Source: Schmidtea nova (taxonomy: Eukaryota). From it: a DNA stretch of 64,000 bases. The notes beneath the pieces are model-generated. The model searched no databases. It was not told the origin of the DNA and worked only from the letters and a program-made list of their open reading frames with translations. The position numbers and the translations under genes are program-made. This document shows positions 2,906-64,000 of this stretch, piece by piece. The stretch lies in assembly GCA_044892505.1 (NCBI GenBank), contig CM097884.1:17856001-17920000 (forward strand), read 5' to 3'. Each line of letters starts with the position of its first letter. Positions within the stretch are counted from its first letter, which is position 1.

Positions 2906-2953
2906 CAGTTTAGGGATAAATGGCTTGGCCCCGTGTCCTCACTATCCCCTACT
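2850..2953 (+). mobile_element. Right terminus of element A (G-tract, then ...CTATCCCCTACT; reads AGTAGG from the end)
   Basis: The same terminal sequence recurs at 19720-19772, and the two copies diverge immediately after CCCCTACT. 5'-AG/AGT termini are typical of Polintons. Confidence 0.75.
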
Positions 2954-4430: not shown

Positions 4431-4516
4431 AAGATATAGAAAAAAATCAAAAAAAAAAGATTAAACCGAAAGATTAAACCGAAAGATTAAACCGAAAGAT
4501 ATGAGAACGTACAATC

Positions 4517-4532
4517 GGCCCTCTTCAGGGCC
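4517..4532 (+). terminator. Histone-mRNA-type 3' stem-loop 1 (GGCCCT-CTTC-AGGGCC, followed by ACAA)
   Basis: 6-bp stem and 4-nt loop fitting GGYYYU-YYUN-ARRRCC; about 86 nt after the acidic-tail stop. Function inferred. Confidence 0.6.
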
Positions 4533-4722
4533 ACAATTTATGATTGTATAAAAATATTAAATAATAAGTTTTAGAAAATTTAGCTGACCGAAATCAGAAA
4601 TGAAACAAATAATTACCGAAACCGAAAAAATAAAAAAATTAACAGATTACAGAAAACGAAAAGAAAAAACAGAAATCAAAAAGATCAAACAGAAAGCAGA
4701 TTCAAATTGGGAAAGTAATAAC

Positions 4723-14289: not shown

Positions 14290-14639
14290 TAATAAAATTC
14301 TTTAAAACTAGTTATAGCACTCAGGAAAAAATCATCGTTCGGTCAATAACACCATATATGCTTAATTACCGCACTGAGAAAAATAATTCCTTAACTTATG
14401 AGATCTTATGGGATTAATTACATTACTTGGAAACATGGGCGCCCGCAAAAAATTTTCTAGGGGATGGGGCAAAATATTTTTAGTTATGTTTTAATGTAGT
14501 TTTAATTTACTGTAGCGTATTTGTATGGTGAACGAACGGACAGGACACTGTAGTAATGGAGGGCATACTGTAGTAACAAATTTTTTATTAACACATTTTA
14601 TGTATATAACAAAAAATATTACAATATAAATTTAAAATA

Positions 14640-15980
14640 AAATTTATTCTTTAAACAATAACTGGAGTCGTCTGTTATCGGTACCAAACATAATTCAAAG
14701 AAATGTAATATGATTCTGAACGTTAATTATTTTGAACAAACATTGCGCTTGGCCAAGCCACTACTCCTCATATAGCCAGGTATGAGACGAAGCGCTTTGG
14801 ATGTTTGCACTCACTTCGATGAAAATATGGATCCGAACACTGAAAGGACTCCAACGAACTGATGATTCACCAAAGCGACTAATGACGGTACAACGACTAG
14901 GTGGACCATCATCAGACGTATGGAAATAGTTTTAATGAGAAAAAATATAAATATGCATATAAATAAATAAGTGAATAACAACATAATAATTTTAGTTTGT
15001 GAGAAAATGTGATCAAAGTAAAAATAAAAATTTAAAAAGAAATATTTTAATTCTTAAAAAAAATAATAAATACATATTTAACCATATAATAACACATTAC
15101 CAAACTTGAAAATCAATCAAAACACCTACGGCAGGGTAACAAAAGCATGATTTGCTAGCCTGCATGACAGAAAAATTCAAGATAATTACTCTTCTGCTTG
15201 GTTCGAAAGAGGTTGGGAATCGATTGAATCGTGCCCATCTAGAATCACGAGTACGTATCAAAACTTCTGGATTCTGCAAGTCGGAAATCAATAGATTGTT
15301 TCTGGAACTTTTTGAGGGGTTCGCTTTTATCGATTTTTACCAGTTGATTTTGTAAAAATTTCACTCTCGTAGAAATTTCTCAAAATTTTCGAGCAAATTC
15401 TGATAACTTCCCTTTTGATGGAGGTATATATAGCTGTTCAAACTGTTATTTTTGTTTATGCATTAAAACAAATTGTTTTAGAAGGAATTTTTGATTCTTT
15501 CGAAATTAGTTTTAATAATTTTAGACAAAATTGAATTATTATTTTTGCATAAAATTTTAAATAAACTTTAAATAATTTATTTTTGATCTAAAATTTTATT
15601 TTTAAATCAAAGTTTTTCTAATTTAGTTTAATTTAACAAAATCTTTAACTAAAACAATTTTCTTTCATATTTCTTTGAATTTTTAAGCTAAAATCGAAAA
15701 TTTCCTCCAAAACTTTTCCTAGTTTGTTGTCTTATTACATAATTGATGTTTTTATGTTATATGTGTTTTTCACGTGTATACTTAATGCGCTTTTGTTCAT
15801 TTTAATTTTTTAAACGTGTATTAATTATTTATTTATGGCTTTTATTATTATTGTGTTTTACTTGGTGTTTTTCTCGATCATATTTTAAGTTTACTTCGTG
15901 CGCGCTCTCTACATGCTGTATTACCGCGCTATTCAAACTAAATTCAGTTTATGTCCAACAAAATGTAATTAAAAACTTTA
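14640..15980 (-). repeat. Old non-coding interspersed repeat family, copy R (part B)
   Basis: Reverse-complement blocks GTAGAGAGCGCGC, GAACAATTTGTTTT and AGTGGCTTGGCCAAG match 53380-54565 and 61860-63064. Confidence 0.7.
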
Positions 15981-21521: not shown

Positions 21522-21554
21522 GGCTACCACGCCGAATAAATTGAACCGATTCAC

Positions 21555-22714
21555 GTGGTGACAAGAAATCAGCATAGAAAGATGATTATGGAATCTTTGC
21601 CTAAACAGGCAAAAGACATTTTGAATTTTAATGTCAGAAGATTCGACGGCCGAAGCACGGTAGAAGCAGAGAAATGGCTCAAGGATATTGAATATTGGAC
21701 GCTACTAAATGATCTAGATTTAGTAAGTATTTTTGATTTATTATTGTCTGAAGAGGTATCTATTCTCTGGAAAGAATTTAAGGACATTGCCACAACGAAT
21801 GAAAAAGCTCGTGAATGGTTTAATGAAACATTTACCAAAAAGAAGTCCATTATGGATAAGATTTGTGACTTATCAGCAATAAAACAAATTAACGATGAAA
21901 GATTTATCACAATCGAGATACGAGTAAAGAAACTTGTTGACGAAGTTTTTGACTGTGGAATTTCAAAAGAAAATATTGTTGAACTGATTTTGTGCAGCAG
22001 AGTTCGGAACGACCGTTTGAAAGAAAATATTTCAACGAAGGCTAATATCTCGAGAGAAGAAATTAGAAATTTAGCAAAAGTATATGAGGCACGAGAAGGC
22101 TACGATACAAAAGAACGATTTGAAGAAGTTCAGGCAGTAGTGAAATCAACCTATGCAAACGTTGCTCAAGATAAACAGAAGCAATGGACTAAAAAACATC
22201 TTTAAATAATAGAATGTATTCGAGTCGTCAACCAGAAATAAGTTATCAAAATAGAAATGAAAGAAGCGAAAGACAAATTGATAGAGTGAAACCCGTGGTA
22301 GAACAATATAATGAGAGGACAACTATGGACCGTAGACCACCACCGTTAGTTTCAATGAAACATATCGCAAGGAAAGTTTATAATAGATGTTGTGGTCTAC
22401 CTGAACCAGCAGAAGAAAGGTTAAGATCTGGTAAATGCTTTTGTTGTGGACAAAGTGACCATATGCGATTTGAGTGTCCTTTGAAGGACAAATGCTTAAT
22501 ATGCGGTAAAGAAGGTCATTCATTTAGAAATTGCAATTTGTTAGTGAAATCAAGAAGTAATACACAAAGACTGGAACGAAGAGTGTACTGTATACACGAA
22601 GAAGACGATGACAGATCAGATGAATTGATAGCCCCAGTCATACATAATGTTGAGACTCAAAAAAATCAAGAAGTCCCTGTTGTCTACATTTCGTCAGTAG
22701 GGTCGAGACAGTAG
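21555..22714 (+). pseudogene. gag: Gag with two CCHC zinc knuckles, frameshifted at about 22200
   Basis: CFCCGQSDHMRFEC and CLICGKEGHSFRNC. Confidence 0.88.
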
Positions 22715-30675: not shown

Positions 30676-33600
30676 TCAATTTGAATCACAATTGTTTCTA
30701 GAATTATTATAATCATTAGGACTGTTTTCATTCATGTTTTCTGGGAAAATAATAGAATTAGGTTCAAAAACTTGTTGATTATACTGCTTATGATCTCCTG
30801 ACAGTAATAATGACAAAGCAGAACTGTTTTCTTTTTTCAATTTTAAAAATAAATTATGACCATCTTTATCTGCTGACAAATTCGAAGCATTTATTATGAC
30901 ACGAGAATTATCGAGATGTGTTGGATTCAATTTTGATTTCGAAATGTTAAAATTATTAATATCCGATGTGCTAGTTTGCGTATTTCCAGAAATATTTATA
31001 GAATAGGATTTTTCTATCGTTGATATTTGACTATTTTCTTCAGTTGCAGAATCAAAAATATCTTCTTTCATAGCATTATCGGAAGAATAAACATCCATAA
31101 ATTTACTATTCATATCGGGATTTATTATGTGCAGGGTAGGTTTTGATTTTTTTGAATAAATTTCTTTCATTCTATTTATTTCATCAACTAACACTTTATT
31201 TTGCTGTTCCAGGTTTGCAACTCTGTTTTCCAAACACTTAACATATTCTTTCTTTTTCCGCCGACATTCTCTAGCTGCCTCTCTAGAAAATGTATTAAGA
31301 ATTTCAATAAATTTCTGTGTGATCATTTAAATTATTATTATTAATTGATACAGTGGAATAATTACAAATTTATTTCAAACATCGCAATATATCCTGGATT
31401 TGCTTATAATGACTAACTAGTTTACACTCTTTTTTTAACTCTTTCTTTTAACTTCCAATTTCTGTTTGTTTTCTTGTCAAACTTTGGATCGATTTTTAAC
31501 CCACTTCCCGATATCCAATCGATCTGAAAATTTGCGAGCACACTCGTGGTGGCCCACAAATTATTCCATTGAAAAATTGAAAAATTTTGAAACAATGTGA
31601 TTTTTCAATTTACTTTTGCCAAGAAACTACCGAACAATGAAACGACAATAAAATTAACCGAGAACATGAGAAAAAGAAAGAGTTACATTAAAAACTTGTT
31701 TTTATGGGTTCCTTTTTTCAATGAATAAAAACATTTGAAATGTTTTACCCACTTGTTCATTTATTTTGTTATTTTTTTTAATTTCTAATGTTTTAAAATA
31801 TATATTATATGAAATTTTGTTATTTTAAATAATTTTATGTAATTTAAGATGCAGTTTTAAAATTCAAAATATATTTTAGAATTTTGACTTGGATTTTTTA
31901 TTTAAAATACTGAATACTGCAATTCCTATATCGTATGTACAAAATCAAAGGCTCGTATTTTTCTGGTCAGAATTTTAATATGGTTATGGTCAGAATTTTA
32001 ATATGGTTATGGTTAGAATTTATATTACATTGGTCAGAATTTATATTAAATGGTCAGAATTTATATTAAATGGTCAGAATTTAAATTGGATTGGTCAGAA
32101 ATTATATTAATCAGTATATTAATCAGTTGACTTGGATTTTTTATTTAAAATACTGAATACTGCAATTCCTATATCGTATGTACAAAATCAAAGGCTCGTA
32201 TTTTTCTGGTCAGAATTTTAATATGGTTATGGTCAGAATTTATATTACATTGGTCAGAATTTATATTAAATGGTCAGAATTTATATTAATCAGTATATTA
32301 ATCAGTTGACTTGGATTTTTTATTTAAATACTGAATACTGCAATTCCTATAGCGTACGTACAAAATCAAAGGCTCGTATTTTTCTGGTCAGAATTTTAAT
32401 ATGGTTATGGTCAGAATTTATATTACATTGGTCAGAATTTATATTAAATGGTCAGAATTTATATTAATCAGTATATTAATCAGTTGACTTGGATTTTTTA
32501 TTTAAAATACTGAATACTGCAATTCCTATAGCGTACGTACAAAATCAAAGGCTCGTATTTTTCTGGTCAGAATTTTAATATGGTTATGGTCAGAATTTTA
32601 ATATGGTTATGGTTAGAATTTATATTACATTGGTCAGAATTTATATTAAATGGTCAGAATTTATATTAAATGGTCAGAATTTAAATTGGATTGGTCAGAA
32701 ATTATATTAATCAGTATATTAATCAGTTGACTTGGATTTTTTATTTAAAATACTGAATACTGCAATTCCTATATCGTATGTACAAAATCAAAGGCTCGTA
32801 TTTTTCTGGTCAGAATTTTAATATGGTTATGGTCAGAATTTATATTACATTGGTCAGAATTTATATTAAATGGTCAGAATTTATATTAATCAGTATATTA
32901 ATCAGTTGACTTGGATTTTTTATTTAAATACTGAATACTGCAATTCCTATAGCGTACGTACAAAATCAAAGGCTCGTATTTTTCTGGTCAGAATTTTAAT
33001 ATGGTTATGGTCAGAATTTATATTACATTGGTCAGAATTTATATTAAATGGTCAGAATTTATATTAATCAGTATATTAATCAGTTGACTTGGATTTTTTA
33101 TTTAAAATACTGAATACTGCAATTCCTATAGCGTACGTACAAAATCAAAGGCTCGTATTTTTCTGGTCAGAATTTTAATATGGTTATGGTCAGAATTTTA
33201 ATATGGTTATGGTTAGAATTTATATTACATTGGTCAGAATTTATATTAAATGGTCAGAATTTATATTAAATGGTCAGAATTTAAATTGGATTGGTCAGAA
33301 ATTATATTAATCAGTATATTAATCAGTTGACTTGGATTTTTTATTTAAAATACTGAATACTGCAATTCCTATATCGTATGTACAAAATCAAAGGCTCGTA
33401 TTTTTCTGGTCAGAATTTTAATATGGTTATGGTCAGAATTTATATTACATTGGTCAGAATTTATATTAAATGGTCAGAATTTATATTAATCAGTATATTA
33501 ATCAGTTGACTTGGATTTTTTATTTAAATACTGAATACTGCAATTCCTATAGCGTACGTACAAAATCAAAGGCTCGTATTTTTCTGGTCAGAATTTTAAT

Positions 33601-36600
33601 ATGGTTATGGTCAGAATTTATATTACATTGGTCAGAATTTATATTAAATGGTCAGAATTTATATTAATCAGTATATTAATCAGTTGACTTGGATTTTTTA
33701 TTTAAAATACTGAATACTGCAATTCCTATAGCGTACGTACAAAATCAAAGGCTCGTATTTTTCTGGTCAGAATTTTAATATGGTTATGGTCAGAATTTTA
33801 ATATGGTTATGGTTAGAATTTATATTACATTGGTCAGAATTTATATTAAATGGTCAGAATTTATATTAAATGGTCAGAATTTAAATTGGATTGGTCAGAA
33901 ATTATATTAATCAGTATATTAATCAGTTGACTTGGATTTTTTATTTAAAATACTGAATACTGCAATTCCTATATCGTATGTACAAAATCAAAGGCTCGTA
34001 TTTTTCTGGTCAGAATTTTAATATGGTTATGGTCAGAATTTTAATATGGTTATGGTTAGAATTTATATTACATTGGTCAGAATTTATATTAAATGGTCAG
34101 AATTTATATTAAATGGTCAGAATTTAAATTGGATTGGTCAGAAATTATATTAATCAGTATATTAATCAGTTGACTTGGATTTTTTATTTAAAATACTGAA
34201 TACTGCAATTCCTATATCGTATGTACAAAATCAAAGGCTCGTATTTTTCTGGTCAGAATTTTAATATGGTTATGGTCAGAATTTATATTACATTGGTCAG
34301 AATTTATATTAAATGGTCAGAATTTATATTAATCAGTATATTAATCAGTTGACTTGGATTTTTTATTTAAAAAACTGAATACTGCAATTCCTATAGCGTA
34401 TGTACAAAATCAAAGGCTCGTATTTTTCTGGTCAGAATTTTAATATGGTTATGGTCAGAATTTTAATATGGTTATGGTTAGAATTTATATTACATTGGTC
34501 AGAATTTATATTAAATGGTCAGAATTTATATTAAATGGTCAGAATTTAAATTGGATTGGTCAGAAATTATATTAATCAGTATATTAATCAGTTGACTTGG
34601 ATTTTTTATTTAAAATACTGAATACTGCAATTCCTATATCGTATGTACAAAATCAAAGGCTCGTATTTTTCTGGTCAGAATTTTAATATGGTTATGGTTA
34701 GAATTTATATTAAATGGTCAGAATTTAAATTGGATTGGTCAGAAATTATATTAATCGGTAAAAATCGGTTGACCATCGGTGTTATCGTATGAGATTGGTA
34801 CGACTGTTCGACTGCAGCGCCAGCATCTGTCATTGCCATCTTGACAGTTCCGACCTGCCGACGCTGAATCAACAGCCATTGTAACAACACCAACTACAGA
34901 CCTTATTGTGGTAAATTAAGAAATGTGTTCATATGAATTTTATTTTCAATATTTTATTGATTAATTTTAGCTTCTACCCTATTATGATGGAAAACGCTGT
35001 CAAATTATATGTATCCAGTGATGAATCTAATGATGAATTCAATGATAAAACAGGCTTGAGTACAACCAGAAGAAATAAGAGAACTCGTAGCTGGTATATG
35101 AGCAACACATGATACAAAGGAAGAGGCAGTTAATGCAGTAAAAGCTGAAACAATATGGAGTTACCATTACAAAAGTGTTACCAGTGATGGTAAAAAAGTC
35201 TACTATCGTTGCAATGTTGTTAAAAGAAGATGACAGCAATGCGACGCTGGATTGTACATTTTCTATAGCATCAATAAAACCGATGCAATCATATTTAGAA
35301 CAAATGAAGGACATTCACATGAAGCGTTAGAAGTGAACACGGTGAAGTTAAATGTTGACATTAAAAATAAAATAAAATCATTATTCGATCTAAAAGTAAA
35401 ACCAAAGAAAATAATGGAGATATTGCATGAACAGGGAATTAATTTGAAAAAAACAGCTATCCAATTATTTGACAAAATTAAGGCACGAAACTTACGGTCC
35501 AAGCAAAATTAGTTTAGGTGAACTGGAAAAATGGTGCTTAGAACATTCTACAATACCTGTAAATGATGATACTTCATATGTACAATTTACATATTAAAAT
35601 GTAAAACATTCAATGTTTGAATATTCCAAATATATAAAATATTTATCAAAAAATATATCATTTATTAACAACCATAAAATAAAATTATTAAACATTTTGA
35701 AAAAGTTATTAAACATTTTGATAAACCCTGTATTAATTTCTGTTGTTTTATGTTAGTAGGATCAAAAAAAATACAAATATCCATTTAAAAATAATTTTTC
35801 TTAAGAAGAAAGTTAACTAAATTTTAAAGTTGAATAATTTTTAATAGACTACAAAGTAATTTTGGTCACCTATCTTTTTTTCAATTTCAAATATTTCCAT
35901 TTTTAAGACTAAATCAAATTTTTTGTCATTGGTACACTTTTAAAAGGTAGTGCCCAAAACTCGTAGGCCAAAGAAAATATTTTGATTTAGTCTTAAAATA
36001 AATGAAAATATCTAAAATTCAATAACAGAAATTTGTAATTTTTGATGAAAATTATAACATGAAACTTTATAATTTAAAATATTTAACATAATTTAATAGT
36101 TATAATTTACCTATTTTTCAACAATCTAATTTCTTTACGCTTCCCAAACTCTTCGTTATTCATTAATCCCAATTTGGATTTGTTAGTCAATTTAGAATTA
36201 GGAGAAACTTCTGAACACGATGAATTTGATTTATTAGGCAGATTATTTAAATTGATTGAAAGAGGATTACTACAATTGCTAGAAATTAACTTCGCTAAAG
36301 ATGTAACATTTAAAGATTCAGAATGATTGGAATTAGATGATATAGTATTGTTGACACTGTCTCCACAATTTTGATTATAACCTCCAGCAGCAACGATTAT
36401 TTGCTGAAATTGTGATATAGAACTTAATTTGAATCATTTATTAAAATAGAATGATTGTTATTATAAAACTGCAGCAATCAAGCTTTAACTGTTGATTGTA
36501 AAAATACAACCATGCAAAACTAGTAATAATATTGTGATAAATTAGATCAATTACTATATAGGCTCATTTGAAATTTTTAATTATATTTTAGTTCTATTAA

Positions 36601-39600: not shown

Positions 39601-42600
39601 TCTAAATAAAATTGAAAGGCATATTCGACTTCTGAATTCTTAGAGTCTCTTAAACTAAGAGACTCTTAGACCATTTTAAACCATTAGAATACAAAAAATT
39701 GTGAATAACTGATATAAAACTTTAAACCAGCTCTTCTAAACAAAAATTCTGAATTTTCAAGTACATCATATCTATACTTAACACAACTTTAAGATCAAGT
39801 ATGGTAAATTTTGTAAAAGCAAGATAGGTTAGAATATATTCTTTCCATATTTACAGTAGATGACAGATTTCTAATTAATTCAATTTCTTATAAAGGATTA
39901 TAAAGGCTTATAAAGGATTCGTGAAATATCAGGGGTTTTTATGCCAAAATCTAGAAAAACAATATATACTAATTTTACGGCGAACAAAAATCGAACTTTA
40001 AAATGCTTGTGCGAAATAATACAAAATCAGAAGAAGTCGAATGATGTGATATAAGTCTGAAAAAAATATTTAAGCGTTACAGTTTAGAATATTTATTATT
40101 TACAATCTGGCAATAACATAAATTATGAAAAATGGACGATATTTCAAATGTACCTATTCTTAATTCCAGTAGTAGTTTCATAGAAGAAAAATTATTAGGC
40201 AATTTAAAAGCTCTGGAGTCAAAAATAATATTTTAAAACAATATCTTGTCATCCAGTAAGGCAAATATCTACATTTTATTCTAGATTGCAAGACGCATTG
40301 GAATTCTCTGATCCCAATGGTCTAACAGATTTTACTGTGTAAAAAATATATCAAAAGTGCAAATGAGAAAAATATCAAATACCAAACGATTGAGATCTGA
40401 GAAGGCATGCTTGAAATTACGAAACAGCAGAAGTAGTTTATTTTAAAAACTTCAAGAAATAAATAATGAGGTGAAAAGAAAACTTAATAATTTAATTGAA
40501 TGAATAAGACAACCGAGGAATACAAATTTACGAACCTTATTATCCTCTAACAAAAAATCACAATTAAATATCCTATGGAATTAATTAATCAATTATTCAT
40601 AAAATAACAACAACGAGCAGTAAGAACAAGAATGCAAATGTATCTGATTTGGCTTTGAAATGTGAATCAATCATCTGGACCAAGAATTCCAAAGGAAAAT
40701 TAATTCGATAGCGGAAGTTATGCCCGTCAAGAAGACTGACGTTTAAAAAATTAAATTATTTTATTTGAACTGAAAACGACGAGACTTGCTGGAAAAATTA
40801 TCCTAGGTTGCTATAACAATAAAACCAACATCAACATTAAATGAACGAGTATTCTCAATCACGGGGAATTTTAAAAACAGAATCTGTTCAAAATTAAGTT
40901 GTAAATCACTTAACGCATTAGTATTTATGAAATATTATTTTTCGAAAAAATAAGTCTTAGTATGAGACTTATTGTGAATTGAAATTTTATATTTTTAGTT
41001 AAATAAATTAGTTTCGAATTTCAAAGATGTTTATAAGATCTTTTAGTAGGTTAACTGTTTTTAAGGAATTTATTATTTGATTACCGGTTAGTAAAAAAGT
41101 CAAATAACTACCAACTCTACTTAACATTCTTAGCATTAGAACTTTCAAAATATGATTTGTCTTGTAATTATTTGAAAAAAAATTACAAGAAAAATTCAAA
41201 ATATCTCATTTTAGAGCTAAATTTATATAATAAGCCCACCCAATAATAAATTAAGAACTTTCCAAAATATTAATTTTAAAAAATATTTATGGTTACACTC
41301 ATATATAATACATCAGGGGTCGGCAACCTATGGCACGCGTGCCAGATTTGGCACGCGGTGGAGTTGTCAATGGCATTTTATGTTGTTTGTTTTTCAATTA
41401 AATATATATTAAAAGATAATTTTGGGATCAAATTATTTTCATAAACTGTATTATTTAAAGTTACAGACATATACCAGTACTTATTTGTAAAAAGAAATAA
41501 GGTGGCACCCTGAATTAATTGGCTGAGTGGCTTGGCACACCACAGCTAAAAGATTGCCGACCCCTGTCATACATAGTAAATTTCAATGCGGATCTGGCAG
41601 TCAAAATATTTTATAATGAAATTTCAACAAAAAATCATTTTTCCAAATAATTATTTAATTTTGTCCAGTGAAATTCTAGCAAGTTATTTGTTGAATAATT
41701 CATTAAATTATTCTATAATATCACACTGAAATAGCATAATTCCAAAAAAAACAACCTCAAATAATAACAAAATGTACAAAAATAAAACGAGCTTACCTTA
41801 CGACTGTTTTAAGATTTCCCAAGACGTTGAAATCATAAAAATAATAACAGGTTAGGGCTTTGGAAGCTTTATCTCTTGCATATATAAATATACAATTTTT
41901 GAGATTTGATTTGTTATTGACAGAATCGTTTTTTACTAATAGTATGGTTATTATTAAGCGCATGTTTAGCAAATTAAATTTAATGCGAAATCACATAATC
42001 TATAGTATTAATAGAATAGTAGGTTTGCATTTATTTAATGCTCTACTACATAAATCTCAAATTACGCTACGCTTTTTGTGTTATGGAGTCTTATTTTATT
42101 TACCGCAAGATTAACTTTTCATAAATAGATTAATTTCAAATTCTTGTTATTTATAATTCATTATTTTATAATATTAACAATATATAACCTTTTAAAATGA
42201 AAAAATTTACTTTGAGATATTTGTATTGTTGTTATGTAATTAGATGAATTTTCGGAATTACCACCTTGATCACTTGATGTTGCTAGATTCTGTGAGTTTT
42301 GATTTAAACTTGATGTCTGCAAGAGAAATGTTGCCGGTAGTGATGAACCGGAATTGAGATTAGCTTGAAGATTTCGTATTATTGAAGGAGCAGTAGAATT
42401 AGAAATTTTAGAATTAATGCTATCTGTAATCGAATCTGTGTGGGATATTTTCCCCTTTTCACCAAGATTTACGATAGAACTTACATCTATTAAGTTACTC
42501 AAATTACTTGGATTCCCACTTTCCAAATTTTCAAGAATTTTCCTAAAAATTATAAACATTATCGATTTAATAATTAACAAATTTAATATCTACTAAAAAT

Positions 42601-47465: not shown

Positions 47466-50400
47466 TACACGTGTGCATAATGCACAATATAACATGATAT
47501 AATTCTAGATTTAGATGGTCCAATTGTGCATAACGTACCGACATAAAGAAGCAGAAGCAATTTTATTCTCAGTCTTATAAGACACTAAGTAATTCATAAA
47601 ATGAACAGCAATAAATTGATGTCTATTGTAGTGCAGTTTGCTGGTAGTTGTTATTTTTATGATTATGATTATTGCTATTCTTGTATGGTGTAAGCGCCGT
47701 CATTGTTATGGACGGTGCCTTTGCGGTCACCGGGGACCCCCCTTTTTTGTGTGTGTTAATTGTTATTATTGTTGTAATTATGATTATTATTATTAGAATT
47801 CAAATTTTCAATTTGAATCCAGCAGCTTACTATAGTAATAAACTATAGTAAGTTAAGGATAAAAAAAATTAGAAAAATTGATTTTTTTAAATATAAAATA
47901 TTAAACGAATTATCCTGTCAACGAACAAAGAATTAAAAAACTAATTAACTTGGCTACAACGGGGAATTACTGAAATTTGCAAACAAATCCTAAAACTAAA
48001 TTAACTCAATATCTACGCTGGTACAGAATATCAATCAAAAGGCCTCAGATCTTTTACAAAATCCAAATAAAAGAATCACTGTAAAGATTAATACCACAAC
48101 AACAACTATCATCCTACCATCCCTTCGCAATAAACTATCAAATATCCTAATCCGATATTAAAGCAAAAACTAAACAAACTATTGTTCGATTTGTGGTCAG
48201 ATCGTTCACAAAAATCTAATACAAAAATCTACAACAACCACAACTATCATCACACAATCCTATCGCAATAAACTATCCAATATAAAGTAAAAACTGAACA
48301 ATCTATTGGCCGTTTAGTGATCCGACAGTTTACAAAGTAATTGCATTGTGATTGTTTTTATAATAACGTATCATTTTGTTTATAGTGTTTACGCATAACA
48401 TAGCATACACCCCGAGTGTCTGCACACAATTACCGCAAGACTCTCTCGGGCACTATAACATTTCTTCACACACACAAGATACTGCGTCGTATTTACATAT
48501 AATAACATACTTTCTTTCGTATTTAATATCGAACTTTACCTTTTATTGACTTTGTAAAAAGTGTATATAGTTTCAACGTTAAAAATCGTATCGTTATAGC
48601 CTATTTGCCTAATAAACGTTTTTTAATGTAAGAAAGGATGTAATAAATGGTCTAGCAAAGGAAAACATATCCAACTGAGATTCATCTGTGTATTTTTTCA
48701 AAATGTTCTAGGAGAATGAAGCCAATTATACTACGAATGCGTGAGAACAAATGGGTGCTAATAGGCTTGGCAATGTGGATGTTCCTAAAATTTATAACTT
48801 GATACGTGGTGCGCCCAATAAGTCGTGAGACTAATATAGAAATAATAATAGTAAAAAAATTGATACAGGCATATTTAAACTTCAACATATATAGGTAAAG
48901 AAAATGTATTTTGTTTTAATAATCCATTATTGTTTAAGTATATTTTTGCGAACATTCGAAAAATGCCTCTGGAAACTATTCAATACCGTAGCGTTATTCG
49001 CTTTCTCTTTCTGGAAGGAAAAATAGAGAAGAGGTTCTTTTTTTTCAACTCTAAACTTAGATGCCAACAGATAGTGGAAGCCTATCTGATCTTTGGCCAC
49101 TCCAAGTTTATATTCCCACTGCAGGCAGAGGATGTGGCTAAAGCCTTTATTGATGCCTTTCACCAGAAAATCAAAACCATGCTAAAAAAGAATATTATAG
49201 ACCTTCCAAATTCCTCTCCCTTCATGGACTCGATTATCTATACTCCCAAGGAAAAGGGTGGCACAGGCATAACAAAAATAAGAGATGAACAAATGATACA
49301 ATGTATAACAAGATTTATTAAGTTATACAATAGTAATCATAAGGCAATAAATAGAATCCTTGTGGAAGAACTGATTGATATAGCAGCTGTCAGATCCGAA
49401 ATTCCTATTTCATCAATCTCCGAAGCATTTAAGTGGTTTGATGGCTCCACCCCTTACGTCAAGAAGAATAACACTAAAACCTCCTGGCTAATGAGAGTCA
49501 AAAATGCCATTGACAACCTAAGAAAAAATCACAATATTAATATAAAATTTACCTTTAGAGGAATAATTCTCGGTACAGAAACAGAATGCTCGGCAAAGGA
49601 TAAATCTACGCTTACCTATGATGTCCAAGAACTTTCCAAAAACCTTCACTGGATGTTGAAAGAACAATACCTTATCACCTGGAAAGCTGCTACATGCCAA
49701 GGTTATATCCACAGGCTCCCAGTCTCAGATTATATGGAAAAATCCTTTCCGAAAATACTGAACGATAATGAATGGCGATTTCTTGTTAAAGCATGGTCTA
49801 ATATGCTCGATCTCAACTTCAAGCAATCGAAACAAGGTGGGAGAATTGGATCGATAAGCTGCAGAAGATGCCAATATATCAAAGAATGCTCTCCTCATGT
49901 CATCAACCATTGCAACTTTGAAAATGCAATTAGAACCGCAAAGCATAATGAAGTCCAAAAACTGCTTGCAAAACTCCTAAAATCCAAAGAGTTGGCCTTC
50001 GAGCTTGAATCCAGACCTCCTGAATCCACCCAAAATCTTCGACCAGACATCATCATTCGTCAAAAAGATAAAATAACAATCTTGGATATCAAGTGCCCCT
50101 TCGATGATTCCAGACTCGTAACAAGAACTGCGATAAATACCGACTTCTAGCTACCAAAATCCAAACAGTTACAGGAATCAAGACCACAGTCCAAACGTTC
50201 GTGATTTGTTCCCTTGGTACGTGGGATAAAAGAAATAACGATGTCCTCAAAATGCTTGGTTTCAAATTCTCTGATTACAAGAATTACAAAAATGATATGA
50301 TCAAGAAGGTGATAACCGGATCCCGAATGACCTACGACCTTCATCGAGGGTTCAATGTTTAATACCTAGTGTACTCTAGCTCCAATTGATGTCCCATTAT

Positions 50401-52405
50401 CTTCGAAGTTTCGAGATAATTGCTATACTTGTCCTAAGTGGCAATTAGAATTGTTGTATTAATAAATTTTAGTCATTCAATACCGTAGCGTTATTCGCTG
50501 TCTCTTTCTGGAAGAAAAAATAGAGAAGAGGTTCTTTCTGAACTGAAAGCTGTTTACCAACAAGAGTGCCCATCCACAGCAACAATTTATCGTTGGTTCA
50601 ATTACTTTCAGAGTGGTAGAACCTCCGTGGTGGACGAAGAAAGATCTGGAAGACCCTCAGAAATTGATGAAAAAATAACGCAAAAGCTGCAGACAATCGT
50701 GCAAAACAAGAGAAAAATAACGACGAGAGAGCTCACAACCCGTCTAAATGTGAACAAAGGAACTGTGCATACTCTCCTCATTGAAAGTGGTATTCGAAAA
50801 CTATGTTCCCGTTTTGTGCCACGCTTCTTAACGGTGGAAATGCGACAACGACGCTTGGAATGCTGCTTGGAGAATCTGCAGATCAGGACCAATGTTGGAG
50901 ACCATTTCATTGATAATATAATCACTGTGGACGAGACAACCTTGTCCTTTTATGTCCCCGAATCTAAAAGAGAGTCTCAAGAATGGAAACTGCCAGGTGT
51001 AAGCAGCTCACTGAAAATGCGGTCCTCAACTTGCCATCGAAAGGCTCTCATGCTGACAGTTTTTGGGACGCCAATGGCATTATTCTGACTGACTTTGCTG
51101 AATCCGGCGTGAAGATCAATAGTTCTTACTACTCCAACATCGTGCAGCAAGCACGGAAGGCACAACACAAGAGCAGAGTGTCTGATCTCTATTTTTTACA
51201 CGATAATGCTCCCATCCACACCAGCAGCGTTTCCATGGCCAAAATTGAGCGTTGCGGGCTCAATTTGCTTCCCCATCCACCATACAGCCCCGATTTGGTT
51301 CCCTCCAAGATTTTCGTGTTTAAAAATCTTAAGAAGCATCTGCGGGGCCATGTGTTTGCGGAAAAACATGATTTGAGAGCAGCCGTGGAGAGTTTTCTGG
51401 GAGAAAAGCCTCCAGAATTCTTCAAAAACGCCTTCGAAAACCTCGTTATTCGCTGGGAAAATTGTGTCAGTGCAGAAGGAAATTATTTTGAGAAATGGTG
51501 CCTATATACCATGCTTGTTCTAAATACAAAGTTTTGTGTTGATATCTTAAGTCTTTCTATTTTAGTCCCACGACTTATTGGGCGCACCACGTATATAGAC
51601 AATTTTAAACATTTAATTGTTTTTAACATTTAATAATTAAAAAAAATATTATTAAATGGAAACAGGTTTGTGAGGTCCTTAAGCATTGTTTGCTTCTGTT
51701 GCCTCATTGTTACGCCGCTAATTAGACCTTTTGTCTAATCTCCACTGAACATATATCATTTGTCAATAATACAATAGCACATTTTGCATATATCATAACC
51801 ATATCATTGATCATATCAGAACTGAATCAAATTAAATAATATACGGAAATATTGCATATTATTTATTGATTAAAAGATTACTAAAATAATTATGCCAATT
51901 TTATACATAAAGGTAACAAAATTAAATCTTAGTAATAAAAAAGTTTTAAAAAAATATTATTTGCTTATTTATGTAATAAATAACATATGATAACGACAAT
52001 TTTAATTGTAAGCTTTAATTCAAATCAAAAATTGTACTTCTTTTACATTTACAAAATATGTCATTAAAATAGATTACGCTTACTTATAAACAGAATTTAA
52101 GTTGGAATAATCTGATTTTTCCTCCTTTAAGTGCTTCTAGAATACGAAATAAGTAACTTAATAAACTTATTTCGAAAAATATTGTAACATAAAATTTTTA
52201 TTAAAATGTTAATAATTATTATTGACTTTTGAACTTAATTTAAATTCACTTAAAATTCAAGATTATCTATATTTTATTATAATACCTTTTGTACTAATGG
52301 TATTAATTGTTCCGGTAAAACTTCAGGGGTAAAAATAATTGTTTGTGATTCTCCATTTGCATTAGGTATTGCTATCAGATATTGATGACTATCATCAAAC
52401 GACAT
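30676..52405 (-). CDS. CREB: CREB/CREM/ATF1-family bZIP factor. Predicted exons 52405-52286, 52136-52084, 42542-42211, 39153-39020, 36403-36111, 31282-30676 (1539 nt, 512 aa)
   Basis: bZIP KRKEIRLLKN-R/EAARECRRKKKEYVKCLENRV; Q2-like ALLHYSKQTQDSQNTVLIP; KID remnant Y-K/KILENL. All junctions are GT-AG with matching phases. The KID and bZIP introns fall at the positions known from vertebrate CREB1. Confidence 0.85.
31886..34760. repeat. Intronic satellite: monomers of 243/179/178 bp built from GGTCAGAATTTATATTAAAT-like subrepeats, with a 600-bp higher-order period
   Basis: Monomer starts (GACTTGGATTTT) at 31886, 32129, 32308, 32486, 32729...; identical ORF-track hits at 32270, 32870 and 33470. 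Confidence 0.95.
34983..35570 (+). pseudogene. N-terminal fragment of a MULE-like transposase (WRKY/FLYWCH-type Zn finger)
   Basis: KVYYRCNVVKRR*QQCDAGLYIF...NEGHSH, then PKKIMEIL and ELEKWC-like sequence. Confidence 0.6.
41314..41566. mobile_element. hAT-derived MITE
   Basis: TIR CAGGGGTCGGCAA / TTGCCGACCCCTG; 8-bp TSD TAATACAT/TCATACAT. Confidence 0.9.
43032..43148. repeat. 117-bp near-perfect palindrome (MITE-like)
   Basis: TAGTATATTTTGTGTACAC...GTGTACACAAAATATACTA, arms about 52 bp. Confidence 0.85.
44585..44640. mobile_element. Decayed hAT (Buster-like) element end
   Basis: AAAGAGCCACATGCGACTCGCAGGCCGCAGGTTCCCGACTCC resembles hAT subterminal sequence; partner end not found. Confidence 0.4.
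47416..47462. repeat. (TA)n microsatellite
   Basis: Read directly. Confidence 0.95.
48805..51591 (+). mobile_element. Mariner (DD34D-type) transposon, defective, interrupted by a non-LTR insertion
   Basis: 38-bp TIR CGTGGTGCGCCCAATAAGTCGTG...; TA TSDs. Transposase from ATG 48963 contains YRWF..F..G, ITVDET, LHDNA and HPPYSPDL; the third Asp is lost. Confidence 0.95.
49041..50474 (+). mobile_element. 5'-truncated non-LTR retrotransposon of the REL group (R2/NeSL/R4-like): RT thumb, CCHC and PD-(D/E)xK endonuclease
   Basis: YTPKEKGGTG; CRRC..PHVINHC..KHN; RPDIII..DIKCPFD; after a frameshift KYRLLA..SLGTW..SRMTYDLH. AATAAA at about 50461. Flanked by a 63-bp direct repeat. Confidence 0.9.
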
Positions 52406-52869: not shown

Positions 52870-55100
52870 ATAATTTTTTTATGAATTGTTATAAATTGAA
52901 TGAAAATTAGGTCGAGAATTGCCAAAAATAATTAATTTTAAAAAATCGAAATTGTTGGTGTTATGGGTTATTGTGAAATTACTGGTGGGTTGTTGACCGT
53001 CAATATGACCTTGACGTTACTATGGCTCTCATCAACAACACAACATACAAAACATTAGCTTAACCATCCCGTTGCCCGTCACAGTGTAACGTTGGTAATG
53101 CAACAAATGGGTGGGTATTCGCAATCAGTGAGCGTCGCAAATTCGAAACTATGATTGACCGAATATCTCCTGGGTCCAAGGGCTACCGATAGAAGGTTTA
53201 ATGTCCATTTATGTCCCTTATGCAGCATCAATTCTTAATCTGCTGCGGAAAAATTAAACGACTCCTATACTGAAGAAATCAACCATATCGTCGTAATTTA
53301 TCATGGAAGTCAAGTGCGAGTCACTAATCAGCATTTCAATTTACGTCAACGGGAGCGAGATGTGTTTCTGATTACTGTAAAAGTTTTTGCAATTACTAAT
53401 TTCCATGTGTTGGGCAAAAACTGCAAATTGTTTTAATAAAGCAATAACCCCATAAGTAGAGAGCGCGCAAGATTCAATTTTAACCCAAACACCCATTAGA
53501 AACCGAAGCGATTGAGTGAAAAACGTCAAAAAGGTGAAGTGGACTCAAGCACATCAATCAGTAGAGAAAGCGCTAGCTGTAAATTTGCAAGTCCTTACAA
53601 TAAAACCTCTAGAGAAATTAAAAGTTGTCAAAAGAAGAATGTTTGAAAGTTTGAATAGGCGGAAAACCCATTGAAAATGCCCATAAAGAACAGAATTGTG
53701 TCATAAAACTTCGGTGCAGAAAAAAATTAACAAAACTTTAGAAGTGAATTGTGATTTTACCATAAAATTTCACATTAAAGATAAAAAGAACTAATTTTGA
53801 TCGAAATATAGCAAATTAAACCAAATTGAATAAATTCTGATTCAAAAATAAAAATTTTGGATTAAAATAAATCAATTATAGTTTATAAAAAATTATTACG
53901 TAAAAATATGGATTTAATTTTGCGGAAAATTATTAGAATTAATTTTTAGAAATTAAAAAAGAACATTCTAGAACAATTTGTTTTACTGCACTAGTGAAGG
54001 TAACACACAATCGATGGTATATATACCGCCATCAAAATGGCAATAATCAGAATTTGTGAGAATTTTATGAAAGAATTTTTTAAAATTTTAATTTTGAAGA
54101 ACTCGAATTTTCCGGAAAAAGTTGTAAGTATCATTCTTTTGTTCGGTGTGGGGTCATTGAACATCATGCCCCTTCAATTACCCCGTACCCAGTATTATTT
54201 TATTATTGTTAATTTTATATTATTGATTATTATTCTTATATTATCATCATCAATTTTAATTATTATCCAAAATATTAAATGAAAGTTGTTTTTCTTTGTT
54301 TTTCATTATTTGAATTTAATCATGTCATAAATTCCCAGATGTAACAAAAATTGATCTTATAATAATAATTATTGTACCAAGATAAAAGTAATAATTCTTT
54401 TTTTCTTCAATACCCCCTGAAACCTGGTGGGTTGGAAGTAGCCTGAGCGAATCGCTGGTTTGATTCGTAATCGATCAGCCCATATTTCCGAGTTCAGGTG
54501 ATGCGCCCAAACATCCATGATCACTTCATCCCAACTGGGGATCAGTGGCTTGGCCAAGGGCAAGGTGTTATATTAATGATCTAAAATTTATAGTAGTGTA
54601 GTTTATTTGATTTATATTTTTTTTTAACATAATGAGCACTTAAAACCTAATACTACATAAAAACGTAAATGTCAATTCATCCATCAATGTCTTTTCCATT
54701 ATATAATTTAATTGTACAAGAATATTCTACTCGTCATTCGCCTTCACTCTCGCTACAATTGTCATCTTATCCGAAAACACAAGTAAAATAGAAGCTAAAA
54801 TTGAAAAGAGAATCGTTTGAAATAATGCTCAAAGCTGATATAATGATCACGAAATGAAACGAATTATGAAGACAAGTATTGATTGATCTGAATTAAACCT
54901 CATTCATTATCTAAATAATTTTCTCTAGTGAACCTTGTTTTCGGGAGCCTGAAGTTCTTAAGTGAAGTGTCTCGAAAATTTCGAGCGCACTTTGGTTGGG
55001 AAATTCATGTTCGAACGAAACCAAAATTCACCTTACTTGATGTCGAAAACCATTCTTTGAAAATTTTATAATTTATTTTAATTTAATTTTCATTTAGTAT
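52870..55100 (+). repeat. Non-coding interspersed repeat family, copy P (blocks A-B-C)
   Basis: 52982-53215 is highly similar to 63660-63890; 53450-54565 aligns to 61870-63064. Confidence 0.75.
54435..54565 (+). ncRNA. Candidate structured RNA element (unidentified) within the repeat family; homologues at 62937-63064 (+) and 14741-14882 (-)
   Basis: Compensatory stem changes across three copies; the length differences break any shared reading frame. Confidence 0.4.
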
Positions 55101-57073
55101 ATAGAATTTTTTTAGATTGAATTCTTATTTGGATTGCGAAATTCATGGATAAAAATTTATTATTACGTAGATTTCGTTTTTTGATCATAAAAAATAAAAA
55201 TTTACTTTTTATTATATTGCGAAAAAATTTATAATGAAAAAATTGTAAACCAAAAATTTTCCTAAGAGTTTGTAAATCAAAAATTATATTGAAACCCATG
55301 AAAATTATAAATCGAAAATATTGTTATTATATAAAATTTTTTTATCATTTTATAAAATTCCAAATTCGAAATTTCATAGGAAAAATTTACGATTAATATA
55401 TATATATATTCTTAAAATATAAAAATTTGAATTCAACAAATGTATATTATAAAAATTAGAAATTTTATTTAAGATTTGTAAAAATTATTATAAAAATTAT
55501 TATTATTATTTTAATTCTGAAAATATTTTATATATAAATATATTATTTTATAAAGTACCCCCCACGATATCACACAAGTCATATTACATCCATATTTGCA
55601 AAACAATACATCCATTCCATTCAATAACACCATCCATACTAATACCACATGCAGCATTTGCTTAAATACAACACACACACATACACTACCACATTTCAGT
55701 CTATAGGATCTTCTATGCTAAATAATACAATAAACAATACATCCACTCACCAACATACACAACGTGATTTCATCTAACAATATCCACTAGCATCATACAT
55801 CCAGACAATTCCCACAGATATTCATATAATCCCATCCATTGTTTATAGCCTATTACCGCAGTATCATTCCCAACATACAAACACACGCAATCACATAAAA
55901 TCATAACAATAGGGCATTCATTTCAAACGTACTATAAAACATACATACACACATCTCCGAACTTATTTCAATTTGTTTCACCAAACCACAACGTACAACA
56001 TATCCATGCAAGAAATGTCATAAGAATTCGCAACCCCGTTATTTACAAAACTCATCTGAACTATCGGCTAAAAATCCAGAATCCCCAATGGTTTTACTTT
56101 GTACTAAATCATACATGCTCACCTCACCGGTAATTTTAAAAGTTCCTATCAATTGTATTCATTATTTATAAAGTGGTTACAGTGTACAATAAACTTTACC
56201 CAGTAGGATAATGTAATCTCCAGGATTTACGATAACAAACCTCAAATCAGATCAAAGTGTAAAAAATTAGATCTAAAACGATCTAAAACTTCAAACGGTA
56301 TGTTGGCGTAGGATGAAATACCTACCAAATTAATGGCAAAATAATTACACCAAATGAATATTAAAGAAAAAGGTAGCAATAAAATTTGAAACAGTACAAA
56401 TGAAAAATTGAAAAATTGTGAACTTGATTTTTTTTAATACAATTTAACAAAAATTTGATACCAATTAAAAATTAAAAAATTGAGAACCCGATTTTTATTG
56501 ATAAAATTTAACTGAAAAATAAAATGTATTTTCCGAAAATATACCGATCGAATTTAATAGCCACGACAATTGTAGTGGTCTAGAAGGTCGATATTGAAGT
56601 TTTCCTCAAAGTATTAAAGGAACATGGTCTGCCTCAAACTTTCACTTTATTCAGTGATATTAGATTTTCAACAGTTCATTTTAATGACGAGTTAACTCCA
56701 AAAACAATCAAAGCACTAATAATTGAAGCTTCAGAATGGTTTTGAAATCATATACAGTGAAAATCGAACTTATCATGATATATGTGCTCAATTATCTTAA
56801 AATTGAGAAATTCCAAGTCAAAACAATTTGAATAATTTAACCATAAATGTTTTTCTCAAAACTTTATATATTTGATAACTTGATTGTGATGTTGGCTGAT
56901 TTGGCGTTTCTGAATTGTTTGAGTTGTTTTTTTTTATTTACTTTTATTTACTTAAAAATATGGTGTTTGTTTTAATATTTCTTTGGAATTAAATTCTTTT
57001 CCTTGAGTTTAAAATTTGTTTGAAATACAAATTCATATTAACTCTTGTTTTTATATTCTTGGATATAATATTG

Positions 57074-61689: not shown

Positions 61690-63900
61690 ATTCTTTGATC
61701 ATGCTTTTCGTATAAAAGCAATAATCTTCCCATTCAATTCTTGTGCAGTCCTTCCTATGTAAATCTAACCTGAACTCAAATTCTGTGCTCTCTTTTTAGA
61801 TGCCTCTTTTCTCCCGTTTCATCTGTTCGGCAAAAACTATATATTGTTTAAATGAAGCGGTAACACAACAAGTAGAGAGCGCACAAGATTCTAATTTAAC
61901 CAAAACATCAATTAAAACCGAAGTAGTTAAATGAAAACACGCCTAAAATTATAGTGGACAAAAGCGCATTAGCAAGTAGAGAGCGCGCAAAGTTCAAATT
62001 TAAAATTCCTTGACCCAAAACATCAAGTAAAACCAAATTGGTAAAAGGGAGCACTTATAAAAAACTAGAATAGACAGAGAACACATTGAGCGCATTCATG
62101 ACATGGACCCTCGGTTGTGGAAATTTAGCATGTTTTCAGAAGGAAAATTGTGATTTTATCTTAAAAATTCGTAAAAATGTAAAAGAAAAACAATTTTGAT
62201 CAAAAATGTAACAAATTAAATCAAATTAGAATATACTTTAATTCAAAGGTAAAACCTTAGATTAAAAATAAATTATTTAAAGTGTTATGAAAATTTGATG
62301 TTAAAAATTAATTTGATTTTGCCGAAAATTGTTGAAATTAATTTTGAGAAAATTAGAAACTCTTTCTAGAACAATTTGTTTTAATACATTAATGAAAATA
62401 ACAAGCAGAAAATAATATAAATACCCCCATAAAAATGGAGAGAATTTAGAATTTGCAGAGAATTTTGCAAGAGAATTGCAAGAATTTGTTGCTGAATTTT
62501 GTTGCTAAAATTTTCTTTTGGTTTTTAGCAGGGAAATTTTAAGAGAGAATCTCTTACTGCCAACTAGTATACCAGTATAACTCTACCAGAATACTTTGAG
62601 AAGAAGAATACTTGCAACCGTTAATCGAATCATTTCGTAAGAAACTTGATTTTGTTTCCTAATTGTAAAAGCCCGCGAGATCATGCCCTCGCTACCAGAC
62701 CTAGATATTTTGATTTATTTTAACCTTCGTCTATGTATTATTATGTAATATGCTATGTAATCTTTTATGAAAATTATAATTTTCTAATCAAATTCGCATT
62801 TTAAATTTTGTCACATTTTCTCATAAACTAATATCACCTTATTATTATTTATCATATATACATCTATATTTTTTGTACTTTATTAAAACCACTTCCATAC
62901 ATTCTAACATCAGTCCGGCCCCAAGCTGTATTGATGAAAGTAGCCTGGGTGGATCGCTGTTCGGTTCGTTACTGGCCAGCTATTATTTCCGCCTCAGGTG
63001 AAGCCCACACATCCATGATCACTTCATCTCATATTGAGAAACAGTGGCTTGGCCAAGGGCAAGGATTTTTTCAAATTAATTTTACGCCTAGAATCCTATT
63101 ACATTTTTATTAAAGTGCGATACGGTATTCGAAGACGCAAATGAATATTTTATTTATAATATTGTAGTTATATTTATTTATATTAACTTATAAAACTCTT
63201 ATATCTACATAACAATTCGGACATAATAAAAATAAATCGAAATATGCGTTCGACTCGTCAATCGCTTTAAATCAATAAACGTCGTCTTTACTTCACTTTG
63301 AAAGAATTTACAAAGTTATTCGGAAAGTTAAACGTATAAAAGATCATAAATGACCACTAAAAGAGTAGTAAAAATGTTATATTGAATGATGCTTACAGAT
63401 TTTGCTCGATAACAGTTCGTTGAATCTTTACTCTAAATCGTAAAAACCATTGATAAAAACTTCTAAGAGTTGCAGAGATCGCCAAGAGAACCGTCTTGAA
63501 ATTTTATATATACTTTATTTTTAGAAATTTGTATGTGATCGGAATTAATTTTTGTAAAAAATTATAATTTATTTTTATAGATAATTAAATGTATAAATTT
63601 TTTTAATTAATGGACTAGGAAATTTATGAATTAAAATTTTATTTATTGTATAAACTTTTGGTGGGTTGTTGATCGTCAATATGACCTTGAAGTTGCTATG
63701 GCTCATATCAACAACGCAACATACAAAACATTAGATTAACTATCTTGTTGCGCATCACAATGTAACGTCGGTAATGCAACAAATGGGTGGGTATTCGCAA
63801 TCAGTGAGCGTCGAAACTTCGAAACTATGATTGACGAATATCTCCTGGGTCCAAGGGCCACCCATAGATGGTTTAATGTCCATTTTGTCCCTTCCTCAAC
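61690..63900 (+). repeat. Non-coding interspersed repeat family, copy Q (blocks D-B-C-A)
   Basis: Block alignments to copies P and R, as given for those features. Confidence 0.75.
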
Positions 63901-64000
63901 AATCTATCTATAAACATTCAATAATATTTTAATCGGAATTTTAAAATAAATAATCTACGTCAATATAAATTTATTATTTCATCAAAATGAAACTTTCCAA

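Follow-up and report, generated by a model that had tools for sequence, protein, structure and literature searches.

The question raised by this locus is what a set of similar, stem-forming segments is doing in a 64,000-nucleotide (nt) stretch of the Schmidtea nova genome (assembly GCA_044892505.1, contig CM097884.1, positions 17,856,001 to 17,920,000 of the forward strand; hereafter the window). A sequence-only reading had picked out three dispersed copies, P, Q and R, as a candidate structured RNA within a non-coding mobile element. We found strong support for a three-domain RNA structure kept by compensating base changes across seven subfamilies, and the repeat that holds this motif is the long terminal repeat (LTR) of a Burro-type giant Ty3/gypsy retrotransposon with thousands of genomic copies.

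Architecture and evolution of the RNA structure

The sequences, positions and stems 1-3 originally given for P (54435-54565, + strand), Q (62937-63064, + strand) and R (14741-14882, - strand) were confirmed. The outline of the motif was incomplete, as it missed a 5' hairpin domain (D0), the extension of stem 1 to ~11 base pairs (bp) and an inner stem, H2. With these included, the copies in the window are as follows.

54407..54565, + strand: structured RNA copy P, with D0 at 54417-54438 (shortened by deletion), D1 at 54441-54499 and D2 at 54505-54561
54437-54565, + strand: covariance model match to copy P, 111 bits
62893..63064, + strand: structured RNA copy Q (D0, D1, D2), with a model match at 62939-63064, 116 bits
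14741..14925, - strand: structured RNA copy R (D0, D1, D2), with a model match at 14741-14880, 98.5 bits

The motif is ~170 nt long and consists of three separate hairpin domains joined by linkers of 2-5 nt. D0 is a hairpin opened by CYGA. D1 comprises stem 1 (~11 bp), an asymmetric loop with UC opposite CCAU(A/U)UU, and H2. D2 comprises stem 2, a loop with MCAU opposite CC(A/C)A, an imperfect stem, stem 3, a UCAU loop and a variable hairpin. Our structural sample held 210 copies in seven subfamilies (P 48, R 39, Q 33, S 15, U 25, V 25, W 25), with 29 further copies from small clusters or singletons left out of the structure counts. When a consensus was folded separately for each subfamily, the three-domain layout was recovered in Q, S, R, U and V and partially in P and W. 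Stem 1 had been described as always opening with G-U, which holds for five of the seven subfamilies but not for V and W, where it opens with G-C.

Pairing was retained while the paired letters changed. Across 35 homologous pairs and the subfamilies, 235 of 237 cells held a standard pair, compared with at most 213 in 10,000 shuffles and 64-96 when the register was slid, a strong count that nonetheless carries no formal probability. Compensatory change was seen in 22 of the 35 pairs; all 29 double-change types kept pairing, as did nine of ten single-change types. Read on the sense strand, the cells included 16 G-U and no A-C combinations, which identifies the sense RNA as the folding strand. A plain MAFFT alignment of 23 copies over D1-D2 gave 84.4% paired (versus 76.0) and a covariation score of 0.343 (versus 0.199), neither reached in any of 500 shuffles, while the number of further pair types in this alignment was not above shuffles. 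Both the compensatory changes and the covariation strongly support the earlier proposal that a mobile element here holds a single-stranded RNA structure under selection.

These counts bear on the idea that the segment acts at the DNA level, as factor sites or as single-stranded DNA hairpins during reverse transcription, without an RNA role. Strong-stop DNA would be long and single-stranded, and CCATNTT, found in the D1 loop and beside the TATA box, resembles a YY1 site. However, strong-stop DNA is the opposite strand, where the 16 sense G-U(T) cells would be mismatches, and factor sites do not account for the 29 compensatory types. We regard this explanation as highly improbable.

Several unpaired letters were conserved where the stems were not. 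The TCAT loop letters occurred in 72-100% of copies in all seven subfamilies, and the conserved unpaired loops read YCAU and CCAA. A TGGCCA palindrome, half of which is paired in H4, was present in 76-94% of P, Q, U, S and R copies, 44% of V copies and 16% of the old, decayed W copies. Additional 4-bp pairings between loops showed no combination common to all subfamilies, the best (between a linker and the D1 loop) occurring in four of seven. The string AGTGGCTTGGCCAAG had been called invariant; it occurs exactly three times in the window, always at P, Q or R, but is not invariant across the family. With up to three mismatches it had five matches in the window against 0.41 expected, and none of 100 shuffles reached five. 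The 10-nt palindrome within it was found in 81% of P, 76% of Q, 68% of U, 12% of V, 10% of R, 0% of S and 0% of W copies.

The flanks, described at first as widely diverged, are homologous LTR sequence, 64-70% alike over 0.3-1.2 kilobases (kb) between window copies. Between subfamily representatives, identity was 0.69-0.76 in the motif, 0.66-0.82 in the first 450 bp of the LTR, 0.57-0.64 in the 250 bp downstream of the motif and 0.89-0.96 in the last 230 bp. The motif is thus marked by its pattern of change and not by its level of identity. Across the 32 sources to which a D1-D2 covariance model was applied, matches fell exclusively in LTRs of this one family, once per LTR, with three in the window and none in internal regions or in the LTRs of two other Burro-like families.

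Search for known RNA families

An Rfam scan, which the sequence-only reading had recommended, identified no known RNA family at the motif. Nothing matched there in the window at E up to 5, the best overlap in a young LTR scored 15 bits against a cut-off of 80, and there were no Rfam matches for hammerhead, twister, pistol or hatchet. With rough descriptors, hammerhead, twister and pistol were each found in 0 of 210 copies, and the hepatitis delta virus (HDV) ribozyme in 9 of 210, compared with 11 of 210 shuffled. The HDV-like P1 feature, a 7-bp helix opening with G-U or G-C, is present in the motif, whereas the nested double pseudoknot (P2, P3/L3, P1.1) and the catalytic C in J4/2 were not recovered by descriptor, loop pairing or Rfam.

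The suggested ribozyme or HDV-like identity was not borne out, given the lack of an Rfam match or a conserved pseudoknot, the lack of any hammerhead descriptor match, an HDV descriptor count no higher than in shuffled copies, and a G-U opening that is not universal. A new self-cleaving class that cuts both LTR copies, in the manner of hammerheads in retrozyme LTRs, seems to us very improbable. The motif is compact, GC-rich and multi-stemmed with invariant loop letters, and LTR-borne ribozymes are described in retrozymes (PMC4918200). However, no tertiary pairing is common to all subfamilies, the hairpins stand apart on short linkers, and an autonomous element that was cleaved here would presumably lose its cap as well as the 3' end on which strand transfer depends.

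An element for RNA stability or translation (ENE-like, an exonuclease block or an internal ribosome entry site, IRES) is also improbable, if slightly less so. The D1 internal loop has a U-rich strand, the leader would be very long, and an ENE stabilises the RNA of the Evade LTR retrotransposon, according to the portion of PMC12501189 used here. However, the D1 loop is U-rich on one side only (a 2-nt UC opposite CCAU(A/U)UU), there is no conserved pseudoknot or Rfam match, and no conserved reading frame starts directly after the motif.

Two further sets of resemblances were rejected. Matches outside this genome, in two viral and two metagenome contigs, were chance hits in GC-rich coding DNA, and likenesses to U1 small nuclear RNA, box C/D, Pol III A/B boxes and dicistrovirus IRES loops failed across subfamilies. 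The literature covered, which excludes the original genome paper, repeat-database entries and supplements, described no structured RNA or open reading frame (ORF) in Burro LTRs. The motif is an uncatalogued, cis-acting RNA, real and well supported, in an element of a known class.

The host element is a Burro-type retrotransposon

The LTRs that hold the motif are 3.7-5 kb long with TG...CA ends and 4-bp target-site duplications (TSDs), and the motif lies ~1.1 kb inside. Those in the window are truncated or interrupted 5' parts, or solo LTRs.

53408..56573, + strand: LTR copy P, which starts TGTTGGG; homology stops near 56573, and no 3' end was found in the window
61824..63658, + strand: LTR copy Q, the 5' 1.8 kb, interrupted by an inverted LTR copy
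14582..15960, - strand: LTR copy R, a 5' part with homology to Q traced to 14582
63659..64000, - strand: the 3' end (...CCCACCA) of a second LTR copy, which interrupts Q in inverted orientation and extends past the window
52983..53227, - strand: 3'-end fragment of a further LTR copy, in the opposite direction immediately upstream of P

Copy number was high by several measures: genome searches gave more than 2,000 first-look candidates for each query, and exact matches numbered 2,417 for a motif 20-mer and 6,502 for the last 16 bp of the LTR. Comparison of flanks gave sharp LTR ends, TGTTGGG at the 5' and CCCACCA at the 3' end. Pattern matching recovered both LTR ends in eight of 20 long loci. 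Six of the eight were solo copies with a perfect 4-bp TSD, with LTR lengths of 3.9-4.7 kb plus one of 6.0 kb with an insertion. A primer-binding site (PBS) pattern after the LTR end had 1,977 matches with a fixed 10-nt spacer, compared with none for a control pattern. A tRNA-Pro(TGG) gene present as a tandem array in the same genome has a 3' end complementary to the PBS. The priming role once suggested for the motif itself is not supported, as the PBS is a separate site 2.5-3.3 kb downstream. As side observations, the 10-nt spacer is unusually long, and the tRNA array at G000:C1:459.6 Mb (L422) has a 308-bp period, with 1,105 pattern matches genome-wide.

Complete elements could be followed from these sites. 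All 20 PBS-bearing loci that we fetched had the same LTR 3' end, and 19 had the motif. Following PBS-bearing elements downstream gave, in six of six, a second LTR 97.6-100% identical to the first and a matching 4-bp TSD, with total lengths of 17.7, 21.0, 22.8, 24.3, 29.5 and 29.8 kb. The two longest contain gag, CCHC, MATH, fusion glycoprotein, protease (PR), reverse transcriptase (RT), RNase H (RH), integrase (IN) and ankyrin domains by Pfam, with the PR-RT-RH-IN order present in both. Their long frames, read as separate pieces, were 2,375+2,630 and 2,408+2,584 amino acids (aa). Three frames scanned from shorter elements had PR and/or ankyrin but no RT. The sequence-only description of a non-coding mobile element was thus half right: the element is mobile, but the motif sits in the LTR of a coding retrotransposon.

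Burro (GYPSM1) of dugesiid planarians is described in the consulted text of PMC6431247 as ~30 kb long with LTRs, thousands of copies and one very long frame, in the domain order gag, CCHC, MATH, fusion glycoprotein between gag and pol, PR, RT, RH, IN and ankyrin. The element here has the same size, copy number, ~5,000-aa frame and domain order, and we assign it as a new member of the known Burro class on this described layout. That same text mentions no RNA structure and no ORF inside the LTR. BIR, BCL2, dUTPase and SUMO-like domains had no Pfam match at E 0.001; several of these were found in the literature by profile-profile search. No polypurine tract preceded the 3' LTR in any of the six elements, where the adjoining 40 nt are identical and not purine-rich, so plus-strand priming must differ from the polypurine-tract type. 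We also note that these shared 40 nt (L326:1800-1840 and five other elements) contain a small hairpin.

Other interpretations of the repeat were discarded. A stand-alone non-autonomous element is rejected by the 1,977 PBS-bearing ends. The lack of a common internal sequence among 78 3' and 91 5' flanks was a sampling artefact, and the failure of PBS patterns with a 0-4-nt spacer plus TGGY to give a common site was a pattern artefact. Neighbouring copies 7-30 kb apart gave eight candidate LTR pairs and no true pair. In a small and biased sample, LTR ends with a PBS were found for 5 of 10 P-like, 14 of 22 S, 0 of 5 Q and 0 of 3 R motif types. Separately, flanks at LTR junctions resembled another copy of the same LTR in 37 of 169 cases, some head-to-head, and insertion targets were AT-rich and palindromic, several in (AT)n runs.

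Predicted transcript layout of the LTR

The order of predicted signals would place the motif early in the transcript. The sites read in the window are listed below.

54018..54052, + strand: TATA box and a TCAG-like initiator ~28 nt downstream, predicted start of copy P, read from sequence
62416-62423 (+ strand) and 15425-15432 (- strand): predicted TATA counterparts in Q and R
54122..54128, + strand: predicted GTAAG splice-donor-like site in copy P, between predicted start and motif
62634-62641, + strand: predicted splice-donor-like counterpart in Q
54149-54186, + strand: another small hairpin, ~270 nt 5' of the motif and with ATCATGC in its loop, stem by eye
62672-62694 (+ strand) and 15130-15163 (- strand): second-hairpin counterparts in Q and R, by eye

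A TATA box near LTR +600 with an initiator-like TCAG 28 nt on was seen in the window copies and the young LTR, and pattern matching located a TATA-type sequence 440-600 nt 5' of the motif in 106 of 208 copies. GTRAG followed the TATA in 88 of these 106 copies, and in example rows it was often (A/T)ATGTAAG, just 5' of the small ATCATG-loop hairpin. The stems of that hairpin differ between subfamilies, and its ATCATG loop string was present in 103 of 208 copies. Of 140 LTR ends (112 located), 77 had ATTAAA or AATAAA ~220 nt upstream of the terminus. If these predictions hold, the repeated (R) region of the transcript would be ~3 kb and would include the motif. Contigs of four sequencing runs of unspecified library type, compared with the 5' part of one LTR, showed no GT-AG joint and could not indicate ends or strand; coverage of the motif was higher in three of the runs than in the other one, possibly through GC bias.

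At L309/L328, the long frame has its first in-frame ATG ~5.3 kb beyond the LTR end and ~8.7 kb beyond the predicted start. Translation of the long frame by scanning is implausible.

This layout would suit a switch in splicing or polyadenylation, in which the structure controls the upstream donor or suppresses the poly(A) signal of the 5' LTR. The predicted order of start, donor, motif, acceptor and poly(A) falls within one LTR, and the ~8.7 kb of leader calls for splicing. YCAY clusters are a target of Nova-type splicing factors. In foamy viruses, by the account in the consulted part of PMC3694450, the same problem of paired 5' and 3' LTRs exists and the donor is placed before the poly(A) site. 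However, the motif is ~300 nt from the donor and more than 2 kb from the acceptor and poly(A) signal, and a search confined to the motif itself found no pairing with either site. We consider such a switch rather unlikely.

An arginine-rich protein encoded in longer LTR variants

Longer LTR variants contain an ORF of 187 aa that ends ~410 bp before the LTR end. It was found in S, P, U, V and W-associated loci, with 5,373 first-look candidates, and an AG acceptor directly preceded its ATG in all five copies read; the motif would then lie within an intron of the ORF transcript. Where silent sites were unsaturated (6 of 15 comparisons), the ratio of nonsynonymous to synonymous change (dN/dS) was 0.04-0.13, which indicates strong purifying selection on the ORF. 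Structure prediction, at low confidence (pTM only 0.27), gives the protein long helices, a disordered linker and a C-terminal helix rich in Arg. Its basic tail is conserved out to distant homologues, of which two are credible among three matches in 1.84 billion representatives. There was no Pfam match, and a word-indexed protein search found nothing. The ORF was present in 1 of 25 complete LTRs of 3.3-5.2 kb, a length filter that disfavours ORF-bearing variants; it is absent from the window copies, and the pieces of the two elements with long frames did not yield it either.

Two side observations concern this ORF. At least three Burro-like families have LTRs in which a small ORF follows a TTT(T/G)TAG acceptor, is basic towards its C-terminus and stops ~400 bp before the LTR end, and examples are given here.

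L242:2566-3126, - strand: small LTR ORF of a Burro-like family
L141:8379-8933, + strand: small LTR ORF of a Burro-like family
L039:4973-8016: a further locus for this feature

In addition, a homologue is fused to a calponin-homology protein in a database prediction (P0002), likely an LTR exon taken into a host gene model.

The presence of this protein raises the possibility of a Rev-like pair, in which the structure would be the response element through which the Arg-rich protein exports or activates unspliced RNA in trans. Rev-like proteins, as the consulted portion of PMC3856414 relates, are made from spliced RNA and bind a structured element in unspliced RNA. The strong purifying selection, the acceptor at the ATG in five of five copies and the conserved basic tail fit such a role, and the model places the Arg-rich stretch in one helix after the disordered linker. 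However, the ORF is in only 1 of the 25 complete LTRs scored and was not found in the long-frame pieces, so the protein would have to act in trans, and the two other Burro-like families have a related ORF but not the motif RNA. The basic stretch may be only a nuclear localisation signal, no clear export signal was identified in the protein, and its C-terminal V/I-I-D-I/L-T string resembles a SUMO-interacting motif, suggesting an anti-silencing role instead. We judge the pair to be unlikely. The same limited likelihood applies to its broader implication, an invertebrate Ty3/gypsy element with a Rev-like system wholly in the LTR and its protein supplied in trans from thousands of solo LTRs.

A proposed protein-read tag on unspliced genomic RNA

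We tentatively favour the explanation that the motif is a protein-binding signal marking unspliced genomic RNA for nuclear export and packaging, and put it a little short of an even chance. Within it, the packaging role raised by the sequence-only reading is plausible. Transcription would start at the TATA box and initiator near LTR +625 and end at the A(T/A)TAAA ~220 nt before the LTR end, which would make the R region ~3 kb and place the motif 400-600 nt into the transcript. The upstream donor and a TTTTAG acceptor ~2.3 kb downstream would make the motif intronic, and only unspliced RNA would retain it. The stems would present the loops for recognition by Gag or by an export factor of the host. 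The combination of freely varying stems, fixed loop letters, a predicted intron location and restriction to one family points to a protein-read signal. Conserved letters in loops are as expected of protein-binding sites, and the occurrence of model matches once per LTR, with none in two other Burro-like families, fits a family-specific recognition signal. Structured export elements in LTRs are known, including the RcRE in U3 of HERV-K and an LTR-derived constitutive transport element (PMC11379458, in the text consulted).

Several points weigh against this explanation. The pairing registers were fitted by hand after two failed fits, the helices were picked from the same sequences and the subfamilies share ancestry, so significance is inflated in the comparison with shuffles. 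On the sense strand, individual copies show just a modest gain in folding over shuffled sequence (z -0.2 to -1.8). The start, splice and poly(A) sites are predictions, with the TATA-type motif in only 106 of 208 copies and GTRAG expected by chance in about half of such stretches. The PBS is 2.5-3.3 kb downstream of the motif, unlike in retroviruses and Ty elements, where packaging signals are usually found beside it. Finally, a motif in the R region would be present at both ends and on LTR-only transcripts, making it a weaker selector of full-length RNA.

In planarian stem cells, Burro elements reportedly rank with the most active transposons (PMC6884822), and they are targets of PIWI control (PMC8532177), yet the literature covered gave no account of their cis-acting RNA signals. 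A small, well-supported RNA fold with seven natural variants offers a handle on the export, packaging or processing of a 26-kb RNA whose R region is predicted to span several kilobases, and if the LTR protein binds the motif, regulation in the style of complex retroviruses would extend to Ty3/gypsy elements.

Other features of the window

The remainder of the window contains further mobile element remnants and a host gene, with the transposon fragments between 21540 and 51633 read from translations.

1-4327 and 16167-19772: pieces of an element with protein-primed DNA polymerase B (PF03175), present as a duplication at a distance of 17.08 kb
4512-4557: histone 3' stem-loop-like match, 32.2 bits versus a cut-off of 34
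21540-25576, 28128-29268 and 48879-51633: broken Ty3/gypsy gag-pol, piggyBac-like and mariner-like transposases, and a non-LTR fragment
30676-31326, 36107-36433 and 42161-42589, - strand: exons of a CREB/CREM-like bZIP host gene, with a Pfam bZIP match for the first

Comparison with known systems

The motif shares features with several known RNAs. HDV-like ribozymes have the same helix opening with G-U or G-C, but the motif is without their nested double pseudoknot. Retrozyme hammerheads share its location in a terminal repeat, but it has no hammerhead core and its host element is autonomous. The ENE of Evade (Copia93) is, like D1, a stem with an internal loop in an LTR retrotransposon RNA; in contrast, the D1 loop is not U-rich on both sides, and the ENE lies in a spacer before the LTR, as stated in the part of PMC12501189 consulted.

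The foamy-virus LTR (PMC3694450) resembles the predicted layout here in having a donor and poly(A) signal in one repeated region with RNA structure between them. However, the distances here are ~3 kb and no structure was seen over the donor. The packaging and dimerisation signals psi, DIS and PAL are tandem hairpins after a splice donor, as predicted here, and a TGGCCA palindrome is present in most copies of five subfamilies. Unlike these signals, the motif is kilobases upstream of the PBS and in both LTRs; part of the palindrome is also hidden within a stem, and one PBS-bearing variant has it disrupted.

The HERV-K RcRE differs from the motif in length (433 nt, per the consulted text of PMC11379458, versus ~170 nt), without sequence or Rfam similarity. 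The protein gene here, unlike in HERV-K and HTLV-1, lies in the LTR itself and is missing from many copies. Like the RcRE and the HTLV-1 Rex response element, the motif is a multi-stem RNA inside an LTR, and its element family likewise encodes a small Arg-rich protein, predicted to be made from spliced RNA.

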